Source of the DNA: Escherichia coli
GTDB lineage: Bacteria; Pseudomonadota; Gammaproteobacteria; Enterobacterales; Enterobacteriaceae
Assembly: GCF_003334305.1 (NCBI RefSeq)
Contig: NZ_QOWS01000045.1
DNA length: 7,579 nt
Reading direction: 5' to 3' (one strand)
This document shows, in pieces, positions 1-7,579 of this stretch. The position numbers and the translations under genes are program-made. The notes below the pieces were generated by a model that was given only the letters and a program-made list of their open reading frames with translations, had not been told where the DNA came from and did no database searches. Within the stretch, counting starts at the first letter, position 1, and the number at the start of each line of letters is the position of its first letter.

Positions 1-361
<361 letters not shown>

Positions 362-482
362 GTAGCCTCCGGAATGAAAAAAATTCGATACAGCAACTTC
401 GCTGCAATGTATTCATTGCGGTAATACAGGTCTGTTTTTTTTTGCATTCGAATTCCGGGGAGGAATGTGATTTTGTGGAGCA

Positions 483-504
483 AACCGGGGGCATTGCCCC
501 GGTT
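483..504 (-). other. GC-rich hairpin (8-bp perfect stem AACCGGGG / CCCCGGTT, 6-nt loop) between alpA and the GTPase fragment
   Basis: Perfect inverted repeat read directly from the sequence, 22 nt downstream of the alpA stop. There is no adjacent U-tract on either strand, so it is not a canonical intrinsic terminator; it may be an attenuator, processing or stability element. Confidence 0.3.
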
Positions 505-526
505 CACTGATACGGTGAAATGATAT

Positions 527-766
527 CTAACGTCGCATTACCCATTCATTCAGTTCTGACTCCAGCCAGCCAACGGATTGCCTTCCCAAGCGTTTTTGTT
601 TTGGAAATGTTCCATCGTAGCGTGGCGATTTTGGATTAAGCCAGTCGTATATGGTTGAGCGTGAAATTCCCATTTTTTTCATGACATCTTTTAGCCTCAA
701 GATCCTCGGTGAATCAGGAATATTTGCGTAACTGGATGTATGTAAGGAGGGAGGGTTCTGTAACAT
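527..766 (-). CDS. alpA: AlpA-family (phage/island) helix-turn-helix transcriptional regulator / excisionase-like protein
   Basis: The translation contains RILRLKDVMKKMGISRSTIYDWLNPKSPRYDGTFPKQKRLGRQSVGWLESELNEWV, which closely matches the AlpA (Phage_AlpA) core as I recall it (RILRL...TIYDWL...FP...GWxExExxEW). There is an AAGGAA Shine-Dalgarno about 6 nt upstream of ATG 764..766. It has about 12 extra N-terminal residues compared with my recollection of E. coli AlpA, so the exact start is uncertain. Confidence 0.8.
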   Translation of the reverse strand: MLQNPPSLHTSSYANIPDSPRILRLKDVMKKMGISRSTIYDWLNPKSPRYDGTFPKQKRLGRQSVGWLESELNEWVMRR

Positions 767-879
767 CTAGGCTTCCTTAGTATGAGTTTGTTCAGGTGGG
801 TCCATATTGCCAACCACGCTGGGGCTGTCATACACTGGAAGTAACATTAAAATAAAATCACTTTAGGGATTTACTTTTC

Positions 880-1761
880 ATGAAGGATGTGAGTGCGAAT
901 TTTTTTGATGATTTCTATCTGCAAGTTTGTACCGCTTGTGAGGACAAACTTCTTGAGCTGGAATGGAAACTTGAAGTCGAAAAAAAGGAGAGCAACCAGG
1001 ATGTTCTGCGCACTTACAGGCAAAGAGCCTATGATAAAATTGAAGAATTTAAAATTATTGAGTATTCAAAAATACAATGTCAATATTTTGTAGATATGAC
1101 TAATAGCGACAATATACGCTACTCACAAGAGTTTATAAATGTTGATGGAATAATGGTTGAGAAACCTTTTATTTATAAGGAAACATATGCAGAATATCGG
1201 ATTGAAATTCGAGGAAAAATGGACGGGTATAAACTGACAGGATTAGCAAGACTATATGATGCACATTATGAATATATATATCTATCTATGGCTTTAGAAG
1301 ATTTTTACTGGGCGCAGTTCCAATATTCATTGGGCAATAAAAAAGAAAGTTGTAAGTTTCTTCTTGATGCTTATTCTTATATGAATGTCTGTATTTCGCG
1401 AGATGATAACCGAGACTTACCGAGTTTTTATCGATTAAGAAGTGGTTTTGATAAAGTATGCAGAAGAGCGCGCTCAAGCGCTGGAGGGAAAAATAAACTT
1501 GCAGAACTTGAATATATTAAAGATACAGTTGTTATCTTACTTGAAGATATTCCTTCACATAGCGACTGGAAAAATAAACGTCAACTTCTTGAATATTTAA
1601 TGCCCTATATTTGTAATAATGATAAAAAGGTCAATCCAGATAAATGGATAAATGATACAGGCGATAGAGAGGAAACTATCCGCCGCAGACTTAATAAATG
1701 GTCTACAGGTGATCTAAAAGTAGAGATTGATAAAGTCCTAAAGAACAATACTAACAATTAA
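880..1761 (+). CDS. hypothetical protein (293 aa), AT-rich orphan gene of unknown function
   Basis: A long uninterrupted ORF in a visibly AT-rich segment, which in AT-rich DNA is unlikely by chance. The translation is rich in K/E/Y/N/D with no motif I recognise. A possible sigma70 promoter TTGCCA-N18-TACACT lies at 807..836. The RBS is weak (AGGGA about 13 nt upstream of the ATG). Confidence 0.55.
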   Translation: MKDVSANFFDDFYLQVCTACEDKLLELEWKLEVEKKESNQDVLRTYRQRAYDKIEEFKIIEYSKIQCQYFVDMTNSDNIRYSQEFINVDGIMVEKPFIYKETYAEYRIEIRGKMDGYKLTGLARLYDAHYEYIYLSMALEDFYWAQFQYSLGNKKESCKFLLDAYSYMNVCISRDDNRDLPSFYRLRSGFDKVCRRARSSAGGKNKLAELEYIKDTVVILLEDIPSHSDWKNKRQLLEYLMPYICNNDKKVNPDKWINDTGDREETIRRRLNKWSTGDLKVEIDKVLKNNTNN

Positions 1762-1992
1762 TATTATTATGGTTTTGATATTTTTATGTCTATCAGGAGG
1801 GCTACTATACGATCAGTCTTGATGGGTTTGAAATTACATCGCTATGAAAATACCCCACATAAATCTATTGGAAAACCAATCATTGTTAATATGACTATTG
1901 TTATGATGACTGTTGTAATTGTGTCTACACGAGAAATTGAATGAAATTTATAGGTTTGAAGTAGCCTTAGTGGTAGTCGAAAATAATTATGT

Positions 1993-2025
1993 AAATGGGC
2001 CTGCATTTTGCAAGAAGGCCCATTT
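1993..2025 (-). terminator. Candidate intrinsic terminator hairpin (AAATGGGCC - 15-nt loop - GGCCCATTT) closing the minus-strand cassette
   Basis: A 9-bp perfect inverted repeat starts 4 nt after the stop of the 2029..2343 ORF. On the minus-strand transcript it is followed by ACAUAAUUAUUUU (a moderately U-rich tract). It sits between convergent genes. Confidence 0.35.
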
Positions 2026-2028
2026 ACG

Positions 2029-2343
2029 TCAGGGGTAAATTATATATCCCATAATCGCACAGATTAACCGGTAATCACTCACGTAGAAGATTTCCGGATT
2101 CTCAGTGCTTTGTTCACCGATAAAGAAGACTTGAGCTCTCTCTTTAGCTTTTTTATTTACTGCTTCTTTTGCTTCTTCCTGCACAGTTTCAAGCTCATTC
2201 AAAAGCATAGTCTTTTTTGGCTTTTGACCAGTCTCCCCACTCAATGTGTAGTTTATAGCTACGCGAGGGCTTAAACTTACCAGATTCGTCTTTTGCCCAT
2301 TCTCCCGAGAGCGGAATGACAATTCGGTTTTCGTCTTGCTCAA
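2029..2343 (-). CDS. hypothetical small protein; either an independent or translationally coupled ORF (alternative ATG at 2206..2208 gives 59 aa) or the frameshifted C-terminal part of the 2195..2941 gene
   Basis: The ORF overlaps the preceding 248-aa ORF by 149 nt in a different frame. The annotated start is a TTG with no clear RBS. An internal ATG at 2206..2208 overlaps the upstream stop (ATGCTTTTGAATGA), a typical coupling arrangement. The ORF ends 4 nt before the terminator hairpin. Confidence 0.3.
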   Translation of the reverse strand: MSKTKTELSFRSRENGQKTNLVSLSPRVAINYTLSGETGQKPKKTMLLNELETVQEEAKEAVNKKAKERAQVFFIGEQSTENPEIFYVSDYRLICAIMGYIIYP

Positions 2344-2941
2344 ATTTCTGCCATAACAACTGCGAATAAAAAACTCGGCGCTCAGGGTAGGGTTGAACCG
2401 GGTCTTTTAGTTTTTTAAACACGGTCATGTAAGTATCGGCATTAATACCTGGGATATTTAATGACATACCACGGTCATACGGGAAGCGAATAAATGCCCT
2501 ACAAATCTGGCGAATAGCATTAACCGGGCGGCGGGATTGCCGCGCTGGAGCATTTCCCCCGCTGGATGCTGACGATGTAGAACGTATTGGATTGGTGTTG
2601 TTGTCGCTACCAGTAGTGCCAGGATCAACAACGGGTCGTTGTTCAATCAATTTTAACCCTGCGGGCATCAAACCCGGTGCGCTGTCTAGCATGTTGCGGA
2701 CGCTTTTTTTCTGTCCCTGCTTAACCACTGTGCTTTCAGCATCTGCATCACAGTTAATATGCTCTTTTCCAGGCATTTTATTAAACGACGGTCTTTTCTT
2801 ACTTCCTTTTTGCCAAGCGGAAGGATACATCTCAATCCCACATCCCCAGCATACGTAACCGTTCGTATCTACAACATCAAGTAACCAAAGATCTTCTGCC
2901 TCAATAATCTCACTGGTATATTTATTACGTGCAGATTCCAT
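2195..2941 (-). CDS. hypothetical protein with N-terminal Cys/His cluster (CWGC...HINC, zinc-ribbon-like), a low-complexity S/T/G/N-rich linker and a C-terminal domain; probable accessory gene of the upstream NTPase
   Basis: Very strong RBS (AAGGAGA 5 nt upstream of ATG 2939..2941). It starts 45 nt after the stop of the 1283-aa gene on the same strand, consistent with an operon. The CxxC...HxxC spacing was read from the translation; no family is recognised. Confidence 0.65.
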   Translation of the reverse strand: MESARNKYTSEIIEAEDLWLLDVVDTNGYVCWGCGIEMYPSAWQKGSKKRPSFNKMPGKEHINCDADAESTVVKQGQKKSVRNMLDSAPGLMPAGLKLIEQRPVVDPGTTGSDNNTNPIRSTSSASSGGNAPARQSRRPVNAIRQICRAFIRFPYDRGMSLNIPGINADTYMTVFKKLKDPVQPYPERRVFYSQLLWQKFEQDENRIVIPLSGEWAKDESGKFKPSRSYKLHIEWGDWSKAKKDYAFE

Positions 2942-2986
2942 GATTTCTCCTTTAAACAGAATTCCTGTGAAGACGGCAACTAGCCT

Positions 2987-5900
2987 TTATTCAAACCGTT
3001 GTTCCAATGCCTCATCTTCCAATCGCTCACGTTCTTTTTCCTTTTCAACCCAGTCAGTCAGTTTTTCATAAACAGCTCTAGCCGACTTAGAAATGTCTGC
3101 ACGCTCGTGGGTGACCAACTGGCCTATCGCTTCAACCCTAGGTTGCATCACGTTCGCACGACTACCGAACCATGATGAAGGTGCTACGTGTTCGGCAAAG
3201 ATCTCAAGGACGGCTCGTGGCTCGGGTGAGGCTTCTAGAAATCTCAGAGCATCATCCTGCAAGCAAATAGGACTTTGCTCCCCGTCTTTTGACCATAGAT
3301 TAATACCTGAAGCGACTGAAGCCCAAACCTGAGGGTCTTTAGTGGTCCTGCACCATTCAATCAAAATATCTACATCGATTTTCGCAATAGGAGACTGATG
3401 TGAATCATCATGATTGATGAAATGCAGCCGCCTCTGTTGTTGATCCTCCGTACCATCAAAAATGCGACTGAGAAATTCTTTTGGCATCCATGCAGCGGTG
3501 ATACCGATAGCGTCTTCGAAAGAATAAATGTAGCCAAAATGCTCATCAACAACAGCGAAGATTGTATTCAGCCATTCTAGCTTTTCAGCCTCGTTGCCAT
3601 CGAAGCGCAATGTGGCATCGATAACACGTTCCATTGCATAATCCAGATATCCGCCGAGATCGTTGTGATCTCTTTGGAACCTCTGGATTGCAGCGGATAT
3701 TCCGATTGTTCGTAGCGCAAGACCTAGTGTATCCGTAGCATCTCCTTTATCAGCTAGTTTCATACTCAGTGCTTCCAATACTACTTCATCACCATTCGGT
3801 TTACTCAGCAGCCTTTGAGCTAGCTCGAGGACCCTGCTTTCTGGCAAATTAGAGAATTGCTCACCCCACAGAATTGCCCCATACATATGGGGCTGTATGT
3901 CAGAGTCATCCAGAAGCGACATGCAACGATCCAGATCGATTTCAGTAAACTCCTGCCAAGGATGAAGGTTGACTAATTCGAATCGAAGTTCGGAATGTTG
4001 TGCACACTGATCGAGCAGTTCCTGCGCTAATGCTGAATCGATAGAATGAGTCTCTTCAATGAAACCTCGAATGACCGAAACATCACGTTGAGATTTGTGT
4101 TGTAGATCCAATTGAATGACTAGTTGTTGCCAATAAATTCGTAGGTCAGGAGCCCCGTTAGCTAAGCCTTTACCAAATTCGACGCGATACGGCATTCCAT
4201 CCCGCAAAAAAAGATTAGGGCACAACTCATCAAGTCCATGGGAAGATACTGCAAATTCGTGCCCCAACTTGAAAGCTTTGGCACAAAGTATTTTCCTGAT
4301 TTCACTGAATTTATTAGTTCCTTGGTGCTCATAATCAGCATCTAGAGCCCAAAAATCGCGCCTATTACTGAGTACATAAGCCATGATTGCCGAAACCAAG
4401 TCTTTAGGTTCTAATTCTCGTTCCAATGTCACAAGTATTTCCGGCAATGGTTCTACGTCTTCGTTATCTTTTCTTTTTGTATGGAAAAAGTAGATTGTTG
4501 AGCGGACAGCTTTCCAGCCTTCACCCCAAGGGCGATGGGCATGTAACTTACGAGCCGCATCAATTAATTTTGACCTTATTCCTCCATGACGCCAAATCCA
4601 GCGAAATTTATCAGCCAAGATCCGCCTGGCATCATCTTCAAGCTCGGGCACTCCTGAGGTTCCTAATCTCACCAAAATATCGATGAAGGCGAATAGCCAC
4701 GCAACAAGTTCATCGTAACTGGGTCGAAATCCATAATCTCTTGGCCTAGCACCAAACTCATTAATTCCGAATCCTGTCCACGGAGGTCCGCCGAGAGCAG
4801 TTTCAAGCATTTCGATCCCCATCCTTCTACGTTCGGCCATACTTGAATCAATGCATTCATTCATGATCGCAACACGTTGTTCTAAAGAGGCATGGGTACC
4901 GGATAGATAAGGTTGGAAAAACCTCTTTATCTTATTTCGAGCCGAATCATAATTATTGCTCGCGCTTTCCTGGTCTGCGATACGGATTAAGAGCTTAATG
5001 CATCGTTCAAAGTATTTCGATTCATATGCAAGTAACTGCAACAATTTGATAATTGCTGTTCGTTGTGGGTTGTAGCGTGATTTAAAATGCTCAAAATTAG
5101 ACGTAACAAGCGTTTCTTCAATCCTCTCAAGCAAAGCTCCTGGGGCAACTGGAGCGATATAATTTAGAATGCGTGTCGATACATCATCTAGGTCTATTAT
5201 TTTTCCAAGCAGCCCTTCGGGCTGTAACCAAGCTTCAACAATCTCTTTAGCCACAGCATGGCTATGCAATAGTCCCAACCTGTGCGCGAACGACATCAAT
5301 AATCGTTGCCGATCCGGAGCTTCAAAGGTCGTTCTAAGTTGATCAATCGGAATACTATTAAGTGCAGATGCTGCCAACTTGTTAGCAATGGCATGGGGAA
5401 GGATGGCTCTCCAGTGGGATCTTTTCTGAACAATGTGACGTTCCATCAACTTCGTAACAGCTTTGAATAACTGGATTTTGGGATACCCAGAGAGCACACC
5501 CAATATTTCCAGTTCATCGGTAGCTGCATCTGGACTAGATATCGAGAACGAATACACCAGTGACAATATTTCAGCTTGCTCCCGTAAATGGCCGTCGGGA
5601 TGATTACGTTGTTCAAACAAGCGATTAAACAACTGCGCATCTGAAAGTAGGGCTAAACTCTCACCTTCTTCCACTCTTTCCGCTATAGCCAAAGCCACTC
5701 TTGCATTCCCATCTGCGAACTCTGCAATCCGACGGGCATTATTCTGACCAATAGAAGGGAAGCGACGGATAAGAAGTTGCTCTGCCACGTCTGGACCATC
5801 TGTCTCAATGTGGATGACCTCAGTTGTCTGTGGTTTGTCATCCCTAATGTCGTACTCGATCGTGATGAGACTTACTTCTTTCCCTGCGGCTGATACTTTG

Positions 5901-6838
5901 CTGGCAAGCGAAGCATGGAGTTCTGATGGGCAATTATCAAGGATCATAATTGCTCGCCGGCCTTCAGCGAGCAGGTTATCAAGCATTGCTGTAGCCGACG
6001 GTACTGGCTCATAGCCAGTATCAACATAAATAGCTACTGTTCGGTCAAGCGCATCTGTTCCAACAGTTTCATCAAAGAGCGCCTGAACGATTCGAGTCTT
6101 CCCAACACCAGACAATCCTGTAATACGAACAGCCTTGTTTGTCGAACGGATCAGTGCTCGCATTGGGTTAATTGCTTCATCAATTTTGAGTTTTTGCCCC
6201 TTTCCCGATGGTAAAGTAATGGTTACGCCTGGGGCTGAGATTAAAGTGTCTATAACACCTTGTGGTGGATTGCTCCAGGCTCCGTAGGGTTGCCAACCGG
6301 AATACCCTTGCCCAAGCTTTGCTTTTACCCACAGCATGACTGATGGATGTTGGCGCAACCATTGGATGAGTTTGGAGCGGTCGTAGAAATCAAGATGAAG
6401 ATAACTTTCGTTAGGATCATCTTTTACTGCATCCCTCATCGCTTTGAGACGATCCTTCTTTCCTGACGGCGAGCAATCATCACCCAGGCTGACAATGATG
6501 TAACTGCCTTGCTTTCTGGCTTGTTCAGAAATGATGGGAGAAAGTGCTTTGCCGGTGCCAATTTCCCTCTCAATTGCAGACTTAGGCATCTTATGTTTCT
6601 TTGCCTGAAAGACCGTATCAGGTCTTACAAGAAAGCCTGCTTTCAGTTGATCAATTGGAACCTGAACATGGATGTCAATTCCTCCGTCAGGGGCTGTAAT
6701 TGAACCAGACCAATTTACACATGCTGGGCTATGGCCGTGCATTGCCACTTCAGCTTCTGCTAGCCGAGCGATCAGCTCTTCCAGCTGGATATCGGAGAGC
6801 CGAAGTAATTCGTCCTTTTCAATGTCAAAGATTGCCAC
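2987..6838 (-). CDS. Large multidomain defence-type protein: N-terminal Mrr-like PD-(D/E)xK nuclease domain + STAND/AAA+-type P-loop NTPase + long C-terminal helical (probable sensor) region; Avs-like antiviral STAND candidate
   Basis: A 1283-aa ORF with no internal stop. The Mrr-like signature is DGGID (aa 51-55, nt 6674..6688) plus QAK (aa 78-80, nt 6599..6607). Walker A GLSGVGKT is at aa 241-248 (nt 6095..6118), Walker B IMILDN around aa 297-302 (nt 5933..5950) and a GNAR lid/sensor-like motif at aa 377-380 (nt 5699..5710). The remaining roughly 850 aa are predominantly helical-looking sequence. The start is a GTG with an in-frame TAG 12 nt upstream and a weak SD, so the start codon is uncertain. 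Confidence 0.85.
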   Translation of the reverse strand: MAIFDIEKDELLRLSDIQLEELIARLAEAEVAMHGHSPACVNWSGSITAPDGGIDIHVQVPIDQLKAGFLVRPDTVFQAKKHKMPKSAIEREIGTGKALSPIISEQARKQGSYIIVSLGDDCSPSGKKDRLKAMRDAVKDDPNESYLHLDFYDRSKLIQWLRQHPSVMLWVKAKLGQGYSGWQPYGAWSNPPQGVIDTLISAPGVTITLPSGKGQKLKIDEAINPMRALIRSTNKAVRITGLSGVGKTRIVQALFDETVGTDALDRTVAIYVDTGYEPVPSATAMLDNLLAEGRRAIMILDNCPSELHASLASKVSAAGKEVSLITIEYDIRDDKPQTTEVIHIETDGPDVAEQLLIRRFPSIGQNNARRIAEFADGNARVALAIAERVEEGESLALLSDAQLFNRLFEQRNHPDGHLREQAEILSLVYSFSISSPDAATDELEILGVLSGYPKIQLFKAVTKLMERHIVQKRSHWRAILPHAIANKLAASALNSIPIDQLRTTFEAPDRQRLLMSFAHRLGLLHSHAVAKEIVEAWLQPEGLLGKIIDLDDVSTRILNYIAPVAPGALLERIEETLVTSNFEHFKSRYNPQRTAIIKLLQLLAYESKYFERCIKLLIRIADQESASNNYDSARNKIKRFFQPYLSGTHASLEQRVAIMNECIDSSMAERRRMGIEMLETALGGPPWTGFGINEFGARPRDYGFRPSYDELVAWLFAFIDILVRLGTSGVPELEDDARRILADKFRWIWRHGGIRSKLIDAARKLHAHRPWGEGWKAVRSTIYFFHTKRKDNEDVEPLPEILVTLERELEPKDLVSAIMAYVLSNRRDFWALDADYEHQGTNKFSEIRKILCAKAFKLGHEFAVSSHGLDELCPNLFLRDGMPYRVEFGKGLANGAPDLRIYWQQLVIQLDLQHKSQRDVSVIRGFIEETHSIDSALAQELLDQCAQHSELRFELVNLHPWQEFTEIDLDRCMSLLDDSDIQPHMYGAILWGEQFSNLPESRVLELAQRLLSKPNGDEVVLEALSMKLADKGDATDTLGLALRTIGISAAIQRFQRDHNDLGGYLDYAMERVIDATLRFDGNEAEKLEWLNTIFAVVDEHFGYIYSFEDAIGITAAWMPKEFLSRIFDGTEDQQQRRLHFINHDDSHQSPIAKIDVDILIEWCRTTKDPQVWASVASGINLWSKDGEQSPICLQDDALRFLEASPEPRAVLEIFAEHVAPSSWFGSRANVMQPRVEAIGQLVTHERADISKSARAVYEKLTDWVEKEKERERLEDEALEQRFE

Positions 6839-7232
6839 TTTTAAACCCTATAAAAGATATTGCGACCATAGAAAAAGTTGCTCTTAGTCTAACCAATGAG
6901 GGAAGAGATGTCCGCTGAACATTTACAATTAAAACCATCCACTTCAATTGGTTAAGATGTTCTGACTCAGAACTGTGATGTCGATCATACCTACTTTTAC
7001 GTAGAGCTATCAGTATGTATGAAACTAAGGTCTAGTATGAACAAAGGACAGGCTCATGCTTTATATGACTGTGAGGTTAACGAGCATTCTAGGTGCAAAA
7101 AGTTCCACTAACTTGATGATTTTTTATTCTTGAGGTGGTTTAGTGCGAGTTTAAAAATTTGGCTAATGTTTAAGATCAATAAATAAGTCCTGATTTTTTA
7201 CTCTTTAGCAATTTTGTTAGCATTTTGTGTAC

Positions 7233-7252: not shown

Positions 7253-7305
7253 ATTAGTTTTTTTTAGATTTGGTTGTTTAAAATTTTATTGGGTGGAGTA
7301 CCAAT

Positions 7306-7540
7306 ATGAAATGGATAAAAAGCACTTAACCTTCAGCAATGGGCAGATTCTATTCCTGCAAAAGTTATTTTTCCAGCACTAATCGCTGATCTTATACGTG
7401 CAACGGCTAACAGTATTACTGAAATTAGATTTCCTAATGGTGATAAGGGACAGGTTAGAGGTTATGACGGTGTACTTAAAGCCGAGGGGGTGGCCCCCTA
7501 TGTGATCTTACCCAGCAATAGTGGACACGCGGCTAAGTGA
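7306..7540 (+). pseudogene. Small plus-strand reading frame interrupted by a frameshift at an A5 run (MKWIKST-stop in frame; 73 stop-free codons follow in the +1 frame)
   Basis: ATG 7306..7308 has a good RBS (GGTGGAG, 7-nt spacer) but hits TAA after 7 codons. The next frame is open from 7319 to TGA 7538..7540 and has no ATG/GTG/TTG near its start. Removing one A from the run at 7317..7321 would fuse the two into a 78-aa ORF. Confidence 0.2.
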
Positions 7541-7567
7541 GTAAACTCTCAGTCAGAGGTGACTCAC

Positions 7568-7579
7568 ATGACAAAAACA
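7568..7579 (+). CDS. 5' end of a plus-strand gene running off the window (MTKT...)
   Basis: ATG 7568..7570 is preceded by GAGGTG (7556..7561) with a 6-nt spacer. Only 4 codons are in the window, so the product is unknown. This ATG is in the same frame as the open stretch 7319..7537, separated only by the TGA at 7538. Confidence 0.3.

Follow-up and report, generated by a model that had tools for sequence, protein, structure and literature searches.

The window analysed here, a 7,579-nucleotide stretch of an Escherichia coli contig, corresponds exactly to positions 12001-19579 of L001, and E. coli chromosomes contain it at 100% identity. In a six-frame ORF list, positions 2987..6838 are covered by a single minus-strand ORF of 1,283 aa, and a second gene lies 45 nt downstream on the shared strand in two frames, an arrangement that matches the PADLOC two-gene definition of PD-Lambda-4 (Table 1). 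Ends of two different IS3-family members occupy positions 1-77 and 7503-7579, which accounts for our finding no long inverted repeat linking the window ends. An N-terminal gene fragment (7301-7502) lies beside the right-hand IS3; the 3 bp flanking this element on its two sides differ, so that a simple insertion into that gene was not established. For a 293-aa ORF, PADLOC, NCBIfam, PHROGs and Pfam gave no match, and its homologues form just 19 clusters, none of them named. Scanning the window for Rfam families and tRNAs also returned nothing.

Table 1. Features of the avs8 locus, in window coordinates
Feature	Position	Strand	Remark
avs8A (PD-λ-4 A) CDS	2987..6838	-	1283 aa; starts with GTG; coordinates include the stop codon
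N-terminal effector domain, 'Mrr-like', ~aa 1-180	6299..6838	-	predicted PD-(D/E)xK restriction-endonuclease fold
DGGID, aa 51-55	6674..6688	-	D51 and D55 invariant; directly before strand β2
QAK, aa 78-80	6599..6607	-	Q78 and K80 invariant; (Q/E)xK half-motif, end of β3
STAND-type NTPase module, ~aa 205-480 (approximate limits)	5399..6226	-	P-loop, then helical and winged-helix-like parts
Walker A GLSGVGKT, aa 241-248	6095..6118	-	
Walker B IMILDN, aa 297-302	5933..5950	-	
GNARVALAIA, aa 377-386	5681..5710	-	helical domain after P-loop core
C-terminal sensor region, ~aa 481-1283	2990..5398	-	helical up to aa 640 in model; TPR-like per literature
avs8B (PD-λ-4 B), shortened 248-aa allele	2195..2941	-	RefSeq WP_000443183.1; PADLOC PD-Lambda-4_B positions 1-245 of 303
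A6 homopolymer, avs8B frame break	2213..2218	-	one A removed gives a 303-aa protein
Out-of-frame avs8B remainder (aa 244-303 of intact protein)	2029..2212	-	PADLOC PD-Lambda-4_B 238-303, +1-frame ORF
Strong hairpin directly after stop codon of 303-aa frame	1991..2027	-	probable operon terminator
Upstream region common to FEX669 Avs8 locus	6839..7024	-	presumably carries the native promoter

We are highly confident that the large ORF is avs8A (PD-λ-4 A), a single-chain immune receptor activated by phage capsid protein. The PADLOC PD-Lambda-4_A profile aligns over its whole length (residues 1-1283 on profile positions 1-1283, E = 0, 2531.7 bits), and in a 100% identical chromosome RefSeq annotates a CDS with matching coordinates as WP_000963924.1, the accession given for ECOR07 Avs8A in a preprint's accession list. 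The GTG start is supported by homologues that begin at the equal position (MAIFDIEKD / MPIFELEKD) and by the identical RefSeq CDS. A sequence-only reading of the window had proposed an antiviral protein of the Avs type, with nuclease, STAND NTPase and sensor, in an island cargo site, leaving its family open. The profile match and the identity to ECOR07 Avs8A bear out this proposal and settle the family as Avs8, a named and characterised subtype rather than a new clade. PD-λ-4, as Avs8 was first called, was found functionally in 2022 (Vassallo et al. 2022), and the trigger and effector of Avs8A were worked out in 2025-2026. Thus, the gene, its trigger and its effector were already published, and as a discovery avs8A offers no new finding.

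The N-terminal domain carries the residues expected of a nuclease core. Across 44 aligned homologues (identities of 39-95%), D51, D55, Q78 and K80 are invariant and E28 is nearly so. The predicted structure has a restriction-endonuclease-like α/β fold, in which a strand (56-59) comes right after D55 and another (74-80) ends in Q78-K80; both D51 and D55 are candidates for the catalytic aspartate. Pfam Mrr_cat (PF04471) matched neither Avs8A (aa 1-1200) nor any of the 44 homologues, a Foldseek search with the isolated nuclease domain returned no match, and hhalign gave no match between the domain alignment and Mrr of E. coli K-12, the single-sequence template making this a weak test. Thus, the 'Mrr' label rests on fold and motif and not on profile membership.

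The central module is better recognized by structure than by profile. In the same 44 homologues the Walker A residues G241, L242, S243, G244, G246 and K247 are invariant, as are D301, N302 and C303 at Walker B, whose hhhhD pattern (297-301) sits on a strand (E296-301) of a structure model covering aa 1-640 (pLDDT 84). G377 and N378 are also invariant and R380 nearly so, in a motif that may resemble the NB-ARC GLPL/lid motif. The model has strand-helix topology at the P-loop and is helical from about aa 350. Its best Foldseek matches in the PDB are the STAND-TPR protein 6mfv (1.1e-6), EfAvs5 (9jap) and NOD2 (5irm), with AVAST5 (9nc9), SAMD9 and CED-4 also among the top matches; the multi-domain nature of the query keeps global TM-scores low (0.2-0.3). 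As modelled, the NTPase is closer to the NLR/Apaf-type STAND fold than to other AAA+ proteins. The motif positions that had been read from the letters alone are exact according to the ORF list and a scripted motif search, and at the level of fold both the nuclease and the STAND assignment are borne out. The earlier description of a helical C-terminus of about 850 aa agrees with the model up to aa 640, the last residue that the model spans.

Profile searches would have given little of this. The best Pfam-A match of Avs8A is AAA_16 (E 0.0084, aa 234-261), AAA_22 is also below threshold, nSTAND3 reaches E 0.53, and the C-terminal region up to aa 1200 has no Pfam match. Of the profiles that the sequence-only reading had named for checking, Mrr_cat, NACHT and NB-ARC give nothing significant in Avs8A, and 0 of 44 homologues match them at E<=0.001; in the homologues, too, AAA_16/AAA_22 stay below threshold. 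That reading had also named the lack of any profile hit as grounds for rejection, a rule that, taken literally, would wrongly reject Avs8A. NCBIfam and PHROGs yielded nothing for Avs8A or Avs8B, and PDB sequences (phmmer, hmmsearch) contained no relative of either. HHpred, as reported by Vassallo et al. (2022), matched PD-λ-4 A to NB-ARC, AAA_35 and ATPase_2 at 97.5-98.0% probability. The Pfam matches, which are to generic AAA_16/AAA_22 only, and the appearance of RFC, ORC and FtsH after the STAND proteins in the Foldseek results, might suggest a housekeeping or mobile-element AAA+ ATPase of the clamp-loader, ORC or transposition-helper type instead of an immune receptor. However, the top structural matches are STAND/NLR proteins, the NTPase is fused to an N-terminal nuclease, and the gene is accessory, the locus being present in 148 of 5,426 complete E. 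coli genomes. Published defence and DNase assays already refute such a role, and we regard it as exceedingly improbable.

Two preprints characterise Avs8A (bioRxiv 10.1101/2025.07.02.662641; bioRxiv 10.64898/2026.01.04.697583). According to the literature, the ECOR07 protein confers defence on cells challenged with λvir or several BASEL phages, is active from its own promoter, and is toxic together with λ gpE, which it binds directly (KD ~127 nM; 14 nM for the Bas21 capsid protein). To degrade dsDNA it needs capsid protein together with Mg2+ and ATP, a requirement for ATP hydrolysis being flagged by the authors themselves as not conclusive. Defence is lost in nuclease active-site mutants, and assembled capsids do not act as a trigger. 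These preprints describe the sensor as TPR-like, wrapping around the major capsid protein and binding its A-domain. The trigger is the major capsid protein, whereas the sequence-only reading had suggested tests with terminase or portal proteins. Given its identity to the ECOR07 protein, these assays show the protein encoded here to be an Avs/STAND-class DNase that a phage protein activates.

In the best-supported mechanism, Avs8A is inactive in the uninfected cell. Upon infection, the C-terminal TPR-like sensor binds HK97-fold major capsid protein that has been synthesised but not yet assembled, and this binding, with ATP at the STAND NTPase, switches the receptor on; as in Avs3 and Avs4, the switch probably involves assembly of a tetramer. 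The activated N-terminal PD-(D/E)xK nuclease then degrades phage and host dsDNA, which would leave no progeny, probably an abortive-infection outcome.

Among known systems, Avs8/PD-λ-4 of ECOR07, also from E. coli, is the present system: gene A is identical and gene B is the same shortened form of 248 aa. What is particular to the window is only its genomic setting, with its two IS3-family flanks and, in strain A7, the P2-like prophage that the Avs8 locus adjoins. EcAvs4 (PDB 8dgf) also joins an Mrr-like nuclease, a STAND module and a TPR region, yet it has no detectable sequence similarity to Avs8A, exceeds it in length (solved chain of 1540 residues) and senses the phage portal, whereas the trigger of Avs8A is the major capsid protein. 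Hydrolysable ATP is reportedly needed by Avs8A and not by Avs4, according to a preprint that flags the requirement as not conclusive. Avs7 and Avs10 (Erebus/Hypnos/bNACHT64) share the trigger class of Avs8A, an HK97-fold major capsid protein engaged at the A-domain interface, and follow the same STAND logic, but their sensor architectures differ. SeAvs7 additionally has a Cap4-type nuclease and incorporates EF-Tu, whereas no such host factor has been reported for Avs8. The major capsid protein also triggers CapRel(SJ46) and the Lit protease; these are not STAND NTPases and have different effectors. A preprint (bioRxiv 10.64898/2026.01.04.697583) describes them as recognising short sequence motifs instead of wrapping the whole fold.

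The surroundings raise the question of whether this copy is active. Homology to the Avs8 island of FEX669 ends at window position 7024, 186 nt upstream of the avs8A start codon, with unrelated sequence beyond and, at a distance of 665 nt from the start codon, the end of an IS3. Within the common segment, a weak -35/-10 match (7013..6984) carries no evidence of function. This break in upstream homology, the flanking IS3-family ends, and the damage to both a neighbouring GTPase gene and avs8B would suit a silent relic that is unexpressed or non-protective in the strain. However, the 1,283-aa ORF is intact and identical to a protein active from its native promoter, database records place that very protein on at least 1,000 contigs, and many unrelated isolates carry the 7.6-kb arrangement with 100% identity. 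Native carriers of the gene include ECOR07, ECOR29 and A7. We therefore consider a relic unlikely, and the avs8A copy of the present strain is presumably expressed.

The downstream gene departs from its family. Avs8B homologues measure 300-305 aa, with a conserved length of 303 aa compared with 248 aa here, and the invariant family residues E249, F272, Q277, F285, D289, R291 and C294 fall in the part that is out of frame. The hairpin after the 303-aa frame is predicted to be stable as RNA (-20.9 kcal/mol, z -4.83), with 0 of 200 shuffles equally stable. Of the 148 complete E. coli genomes carrying the locus, 145 are consistent with the identical frameshift, and intact alleles, such as those of strains FEX669, R32_14_1F and RMDEC465, have a genomic A5 in place of A6. 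Programmed frameshifting at the A6 run would need a +1 shift (or one A lost), whereas A-AAA-AAG sites typically promote a -1 shift, and the run is short for transcriptional slippage; together with the A5 of intact alleles, these points favour a simple frameshift mutation. Pfam returned nothing for 37 Avs8B homologues, and HHpred gave weak CoiA/zinc-ribbon matches to PD-λ-4 B aa 1-69 (Vassallo et al. 2022).

Whether avs8A acts alone or as half of an obligate pair, with the downstream gene required for sensing or regulation, can be weighed on these data. PD-λ-4 was defined as two genes (Vassallo et al. 2022, PADLOC) and PADLOC includes a B model, while the 45-nt gap, common strand and hairpin placed after the full-length B frame are consistent with co-transcription. 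However, Avs8A alone equals the operon in λ defence and transposon hits fall only in A (preprint), which largely refutes a requirement for λ. Additionally, B is frameshift-shortened both here and in ECOR07, whose Avs8B has the same accession as the allele in the window, so the tested ECOR07 allele is the 248-aa form. Intact Avs8B homologues adjoin Lamassu or Qat without Avs8A, or no large defence gene at all, and the gene downstream of a distant Avs8A homologue is unrelated to Avs8B. We thus judge an obligate pair very unlikely, and the occurrence beside Lamassu and Qat indicates that Avs8B is probably not a dedicated Avs8 component.

The case of avs8A provides a positive control for reading raw sequence, since a nuclease-STAND-sensor immune receptor was correctly inferred where Pfam-level searches return nothing. 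For the family, the published conclusion that Avs8B is dispensable rests on the shortened allele. Because most E. coli carriers have a frameshifted B, and B homologues also stand beside unrelated systems, annotation rules that demand the A and the B gene of PD-Lambda-4 together may score loci wrongly. It is conceivable, if on balance doubtful, that Avs8B is an independent conserved 303-aa protein marking the edge of a slot for defence cargo in P4-type integrase islands, where different bacteria place it immediately behind Avs8A, Lamassu or Qat. On this view most E. coli copies, among them the only tested allele (that of ECOR07), are frameshift pseudogenes without the most conserved C-terminal motifs, and the intact protein possibly retains a role. 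If so, intact Avs8B could serve island mobility or regulation, stand-alone defence, or the modulation of multiple systems.

We identify the large gene of this stretch as avs8A (PD-λ-4 A), which encodes a named and mechanistically characterised protein; it was thus already known and is no discovery. The PADLOC-DB profile PD-Lambda-4_A covers the ORF end to end (residues 1-1283 on positions 1-1283, 2531.7 bits), and the next ORF downstream, avs8B, matches PD-Lambda-4_B. All 7579 bases of the window recur with 100% identity in E. coli chromosomes, among them those of strains A7 and ECOR29, and equal positions 12001-19579 of our compared locus L001 base for base. RefSeq names the two genes in an identical chromosome WP_000963924.1 and WP_000443183.1, which are the Avs8A and Avs8B accessions of strain ECOR07 (bioRxiv 10.1101/2025.07.02.662641). 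The full-length PADLOC match, a check that the sequence-only reading had proposed, and the accession shared with ECOR07 support its interpretation of an antiviral, Avs-like protein. The exact protein occurs on at least 1000 contigs, and the Avs8 locus, scored by an 89-nt probe within avs8B, is present in 148 of 5426 complete E. coli genomes.

PD-λ-4 was found through functional selection and listed as 'ATPase, hypothetical', with HHpred ATPase matches to AAA_35, ATPase_2 and NB-ARC at aa 224-392 (Vassallo et al. 2022, PMC9519451); 'Avs8 (PD-λ-4)' has been placed among STAND families sensing the major capsid protein (bioRxiv 10.64898/2026.01.04.697583). Published work on the identical sequence found that Avs8, under its native promoter, blocked λvir and BASEL phages Bas21-25, Bas46 and Bas49, and plasmids expressing λ gpE or Bas21-25 capsid proteins gave no transformants in Avs8 cells. 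Purified Avs8A bound gpE (KD 127 nM) and Bas21 capsid protein (14 nM), and degraded linear dsDNA only with capsid protein, Mg2+ and ATP, for which AMP-PNP was no replacement; assembled virions did not activate it. Defence was lost in nuclease active-site mutants of Avs8A, Avs8B was dispensable, and AlphaFold3 favoured an Avs8A tetramer. Avs8A may oligomerise, with an outcome that may be abortive.

Profile searches recover almost nothing of this protein: only AAA_16 came up in Pfam, around the P-loop (E 0.0084-0.02), NCBIfam and PHROGs searches gave no match, and a sequence search of PDB chains found no relative; the Pfam profiles Mrr_cat, NACHT and NB-ARC, to which the sequence-only reading had pointed, matched none of 44 avs8A homologues. 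The ORF and motifs that it had picked out were recovered exactly by ORF list and script (DGGID 51-55, QAK 78-80, GLSGVGKT 241-248, IMILDN 297-302, GNARVALAIA 377-386) and are conserved in the 44 homologues (39-95% identity), where D51, D55, Q78, K80, Walker A G241-K247, D301, G377 and N378 are invariant. For an AlphaFold2 model of aa 1-640, built from the 44-sequence alignment (mean pLDDT 84), the top Foldseek PDB matches were 6mfv STAND-TPR (1.1e-6), EfAvs5, NOD2, AVAST5, SAMD9 and CED-4, and clamp-loader and ORC AAA+ proteins ranked after the STAND proteins. D55 directly precedes β2 and Q78-x-K80 ends β3, the usual PD-(D/E)xK geometry. By fold and by motif, the label 'Mrr-like nuclease + STAND NTPase' thus holds: the STAND assignment agrees with the best structural matches, and the nuclease assignment stands as PD-(D/E)xK geometry, not as Pfam Mrr_cat membership.

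The earlier proposal of an island cargo site is a fair one, as window 78-7024 is 97.7% identical to the CP4-57/P4-type island of E. coli FEX669, which is ordered helicase, avs8A, intact avs8B, 293-aa ORF, AlpA-like regulator, GTPase ... YfjI. GC content around the 293-aa ORF is 31-35%, versus about 46% for avs8A. PADLOC, NCBIfam, PHROGs and Pfam gave no match to this ORF. Its homologues form only 19 clusters; every named cluster belongs to Enterobacterales, and a function is given for none. By position, a 389-aa gene without annotation occupies its slot in locus L019. The AlpA-type protein matches the MADS MAD1 models only weakly and partially, and this is not to be taken for a MADS system.

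The two window ends are different IS3-family elements, the right one being IS3 itself. The gene fragment running into it has its ATG in another frame, and the frame seems to change close to a short run of A. Beyond IS3, the chromosome of strain A7 continues with a P2-like prophage, and a DUF4145 ORF there adjoins the prophage portal gene (L001 20761-21219). A simple IS3 insertion into the fragmented gene is not established, because the 3-bp flanks do not match between the sides of the element.

Features of the window and arrangements of B homologues in compared loci
Feature	Location	Strand	Remarks
IS3-family end, left	1-77		ends ...CCACTACA at 70-77
YeeP/YfjP-like GTPase gene	74-361		truncated by left IS3-family end
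AlpA-type helix-turn-helix protein	527-766	-	79 aa; PHROG excisionase/regulator families, E 7e-11
293-aa ORF	880-1761	+	convergent with avs8B
Hairpin	1991-2027	-	12-bp stem; -20.9 kcal/mol, z -4.8
avs8B, whole split extent	2029-2941	-	
avs8B as read	2195-2941	-	248 aa
A6 run	2213-2218	-	avs8B frame break; one-base frameshift
avs8A ORF	2987-6838	-	1283 aa, GTG start; sole long ORF of window
N-terminal gene fragment (…WADSIPAKVIFPALIADLIRATANSITEIRFPNGDKGQVRGYDGVLKAEGVAPY)	7301-7502	+	runs into IS3 end
IS3 left end, right side of window	7503-7579		TGATCTTACCCAGC... from 7503
Lamassu LmuA-C-B, then intact B	L012 4138-8912	same	PADLOC
Lamassu LmuA-?-LmuB operon, then intact B	L017 2423-13597	same	PADLOC
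QatABCD, then intact B	L007/L008 1050-6915	same	Salmonella
QatABCD, then intact B	L022 1069-8566	same	E. coli
Avs8A, then intact B	L002, L019	same	
Avs8A, then B	L013	same	B split as in window
Avs8A remnant aa 995-1283, then intact B	L020/L021	same	Serratia; IS-truncated
Intact B, no large co-oriented defence gene	L003, L009		Pseudomonas

Judged by probe identity, most E. coli carriers have a frameshifted avs8B. The last 60 codons of its family profile resume in the +1 frame (PADLOC positions 238-303), and removing one A from the A6 run yields exactly 303 aa; in organisms ranging from Enterobacterales to Pseudomonas, nearly all homologues (38-91% identity) are 300-305 aa long. Among the residues lost with the tail, E249, F272, Q277, F285, D289, R291 and C294 are invariant. 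Three of the 148 carriers among complete E. coli genomes match an intact A5 probe perfectly and have the intact allele; the other 145 are 95-99% identical to it, with about one position different. All nine genomes inspected among these 145 have a one-base gap (90 nt against the 89-nt probe) and thus carry A6, as in the window. Additionally, the ECOR07 allele behind the dispensability result is the truncated 248-aa accession. The hairpin downstream, undetected by a simple terminator scan, adjoins the stop codon of the 303-aa frame, not the premature stop, and is likely the operon terminator.

Intact homologues of B also follow other defence systems directly. The one next to Lamassu is 82% identical, and in the E. 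coli QatABCD locus the gene after B is a P4-type integrase. In loci that have both genes, B is better conserved than A: identity in L019 is 91% for B and 72% for A, and in Serratia plymuthica (L020/L021 5085-5951) an IS3-family element left only the last 289 residues of Avs8A (53% identity) beside an intact, 86% identical B. An unrelated gene lies downstream of a distant Avs8A homologue. In the Salmonella loci, a short out-of-context fragment (386-614) resembling Avs8A aa 87-163 persists upstream of Qat, which suggests that Qat took the place of an earlier Avs8A in this slot. A similar fragment occurs in L014/L015 (2386-2614) at equal spacing from B; judged only by fragment and spacing, the arrangement looks like that of the QatABCD loci.

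Neither the frameshift in most E. coli carriers nor the presence of B beside other defence systems was found in the two Avs8 papers examined, and Pfam and PDB searches gave no relative of B. On the simplest reading, B would belong to the backbone, or mark the edge, of a cargo slot in P4-type islands and would not be a subunit of Avs8.
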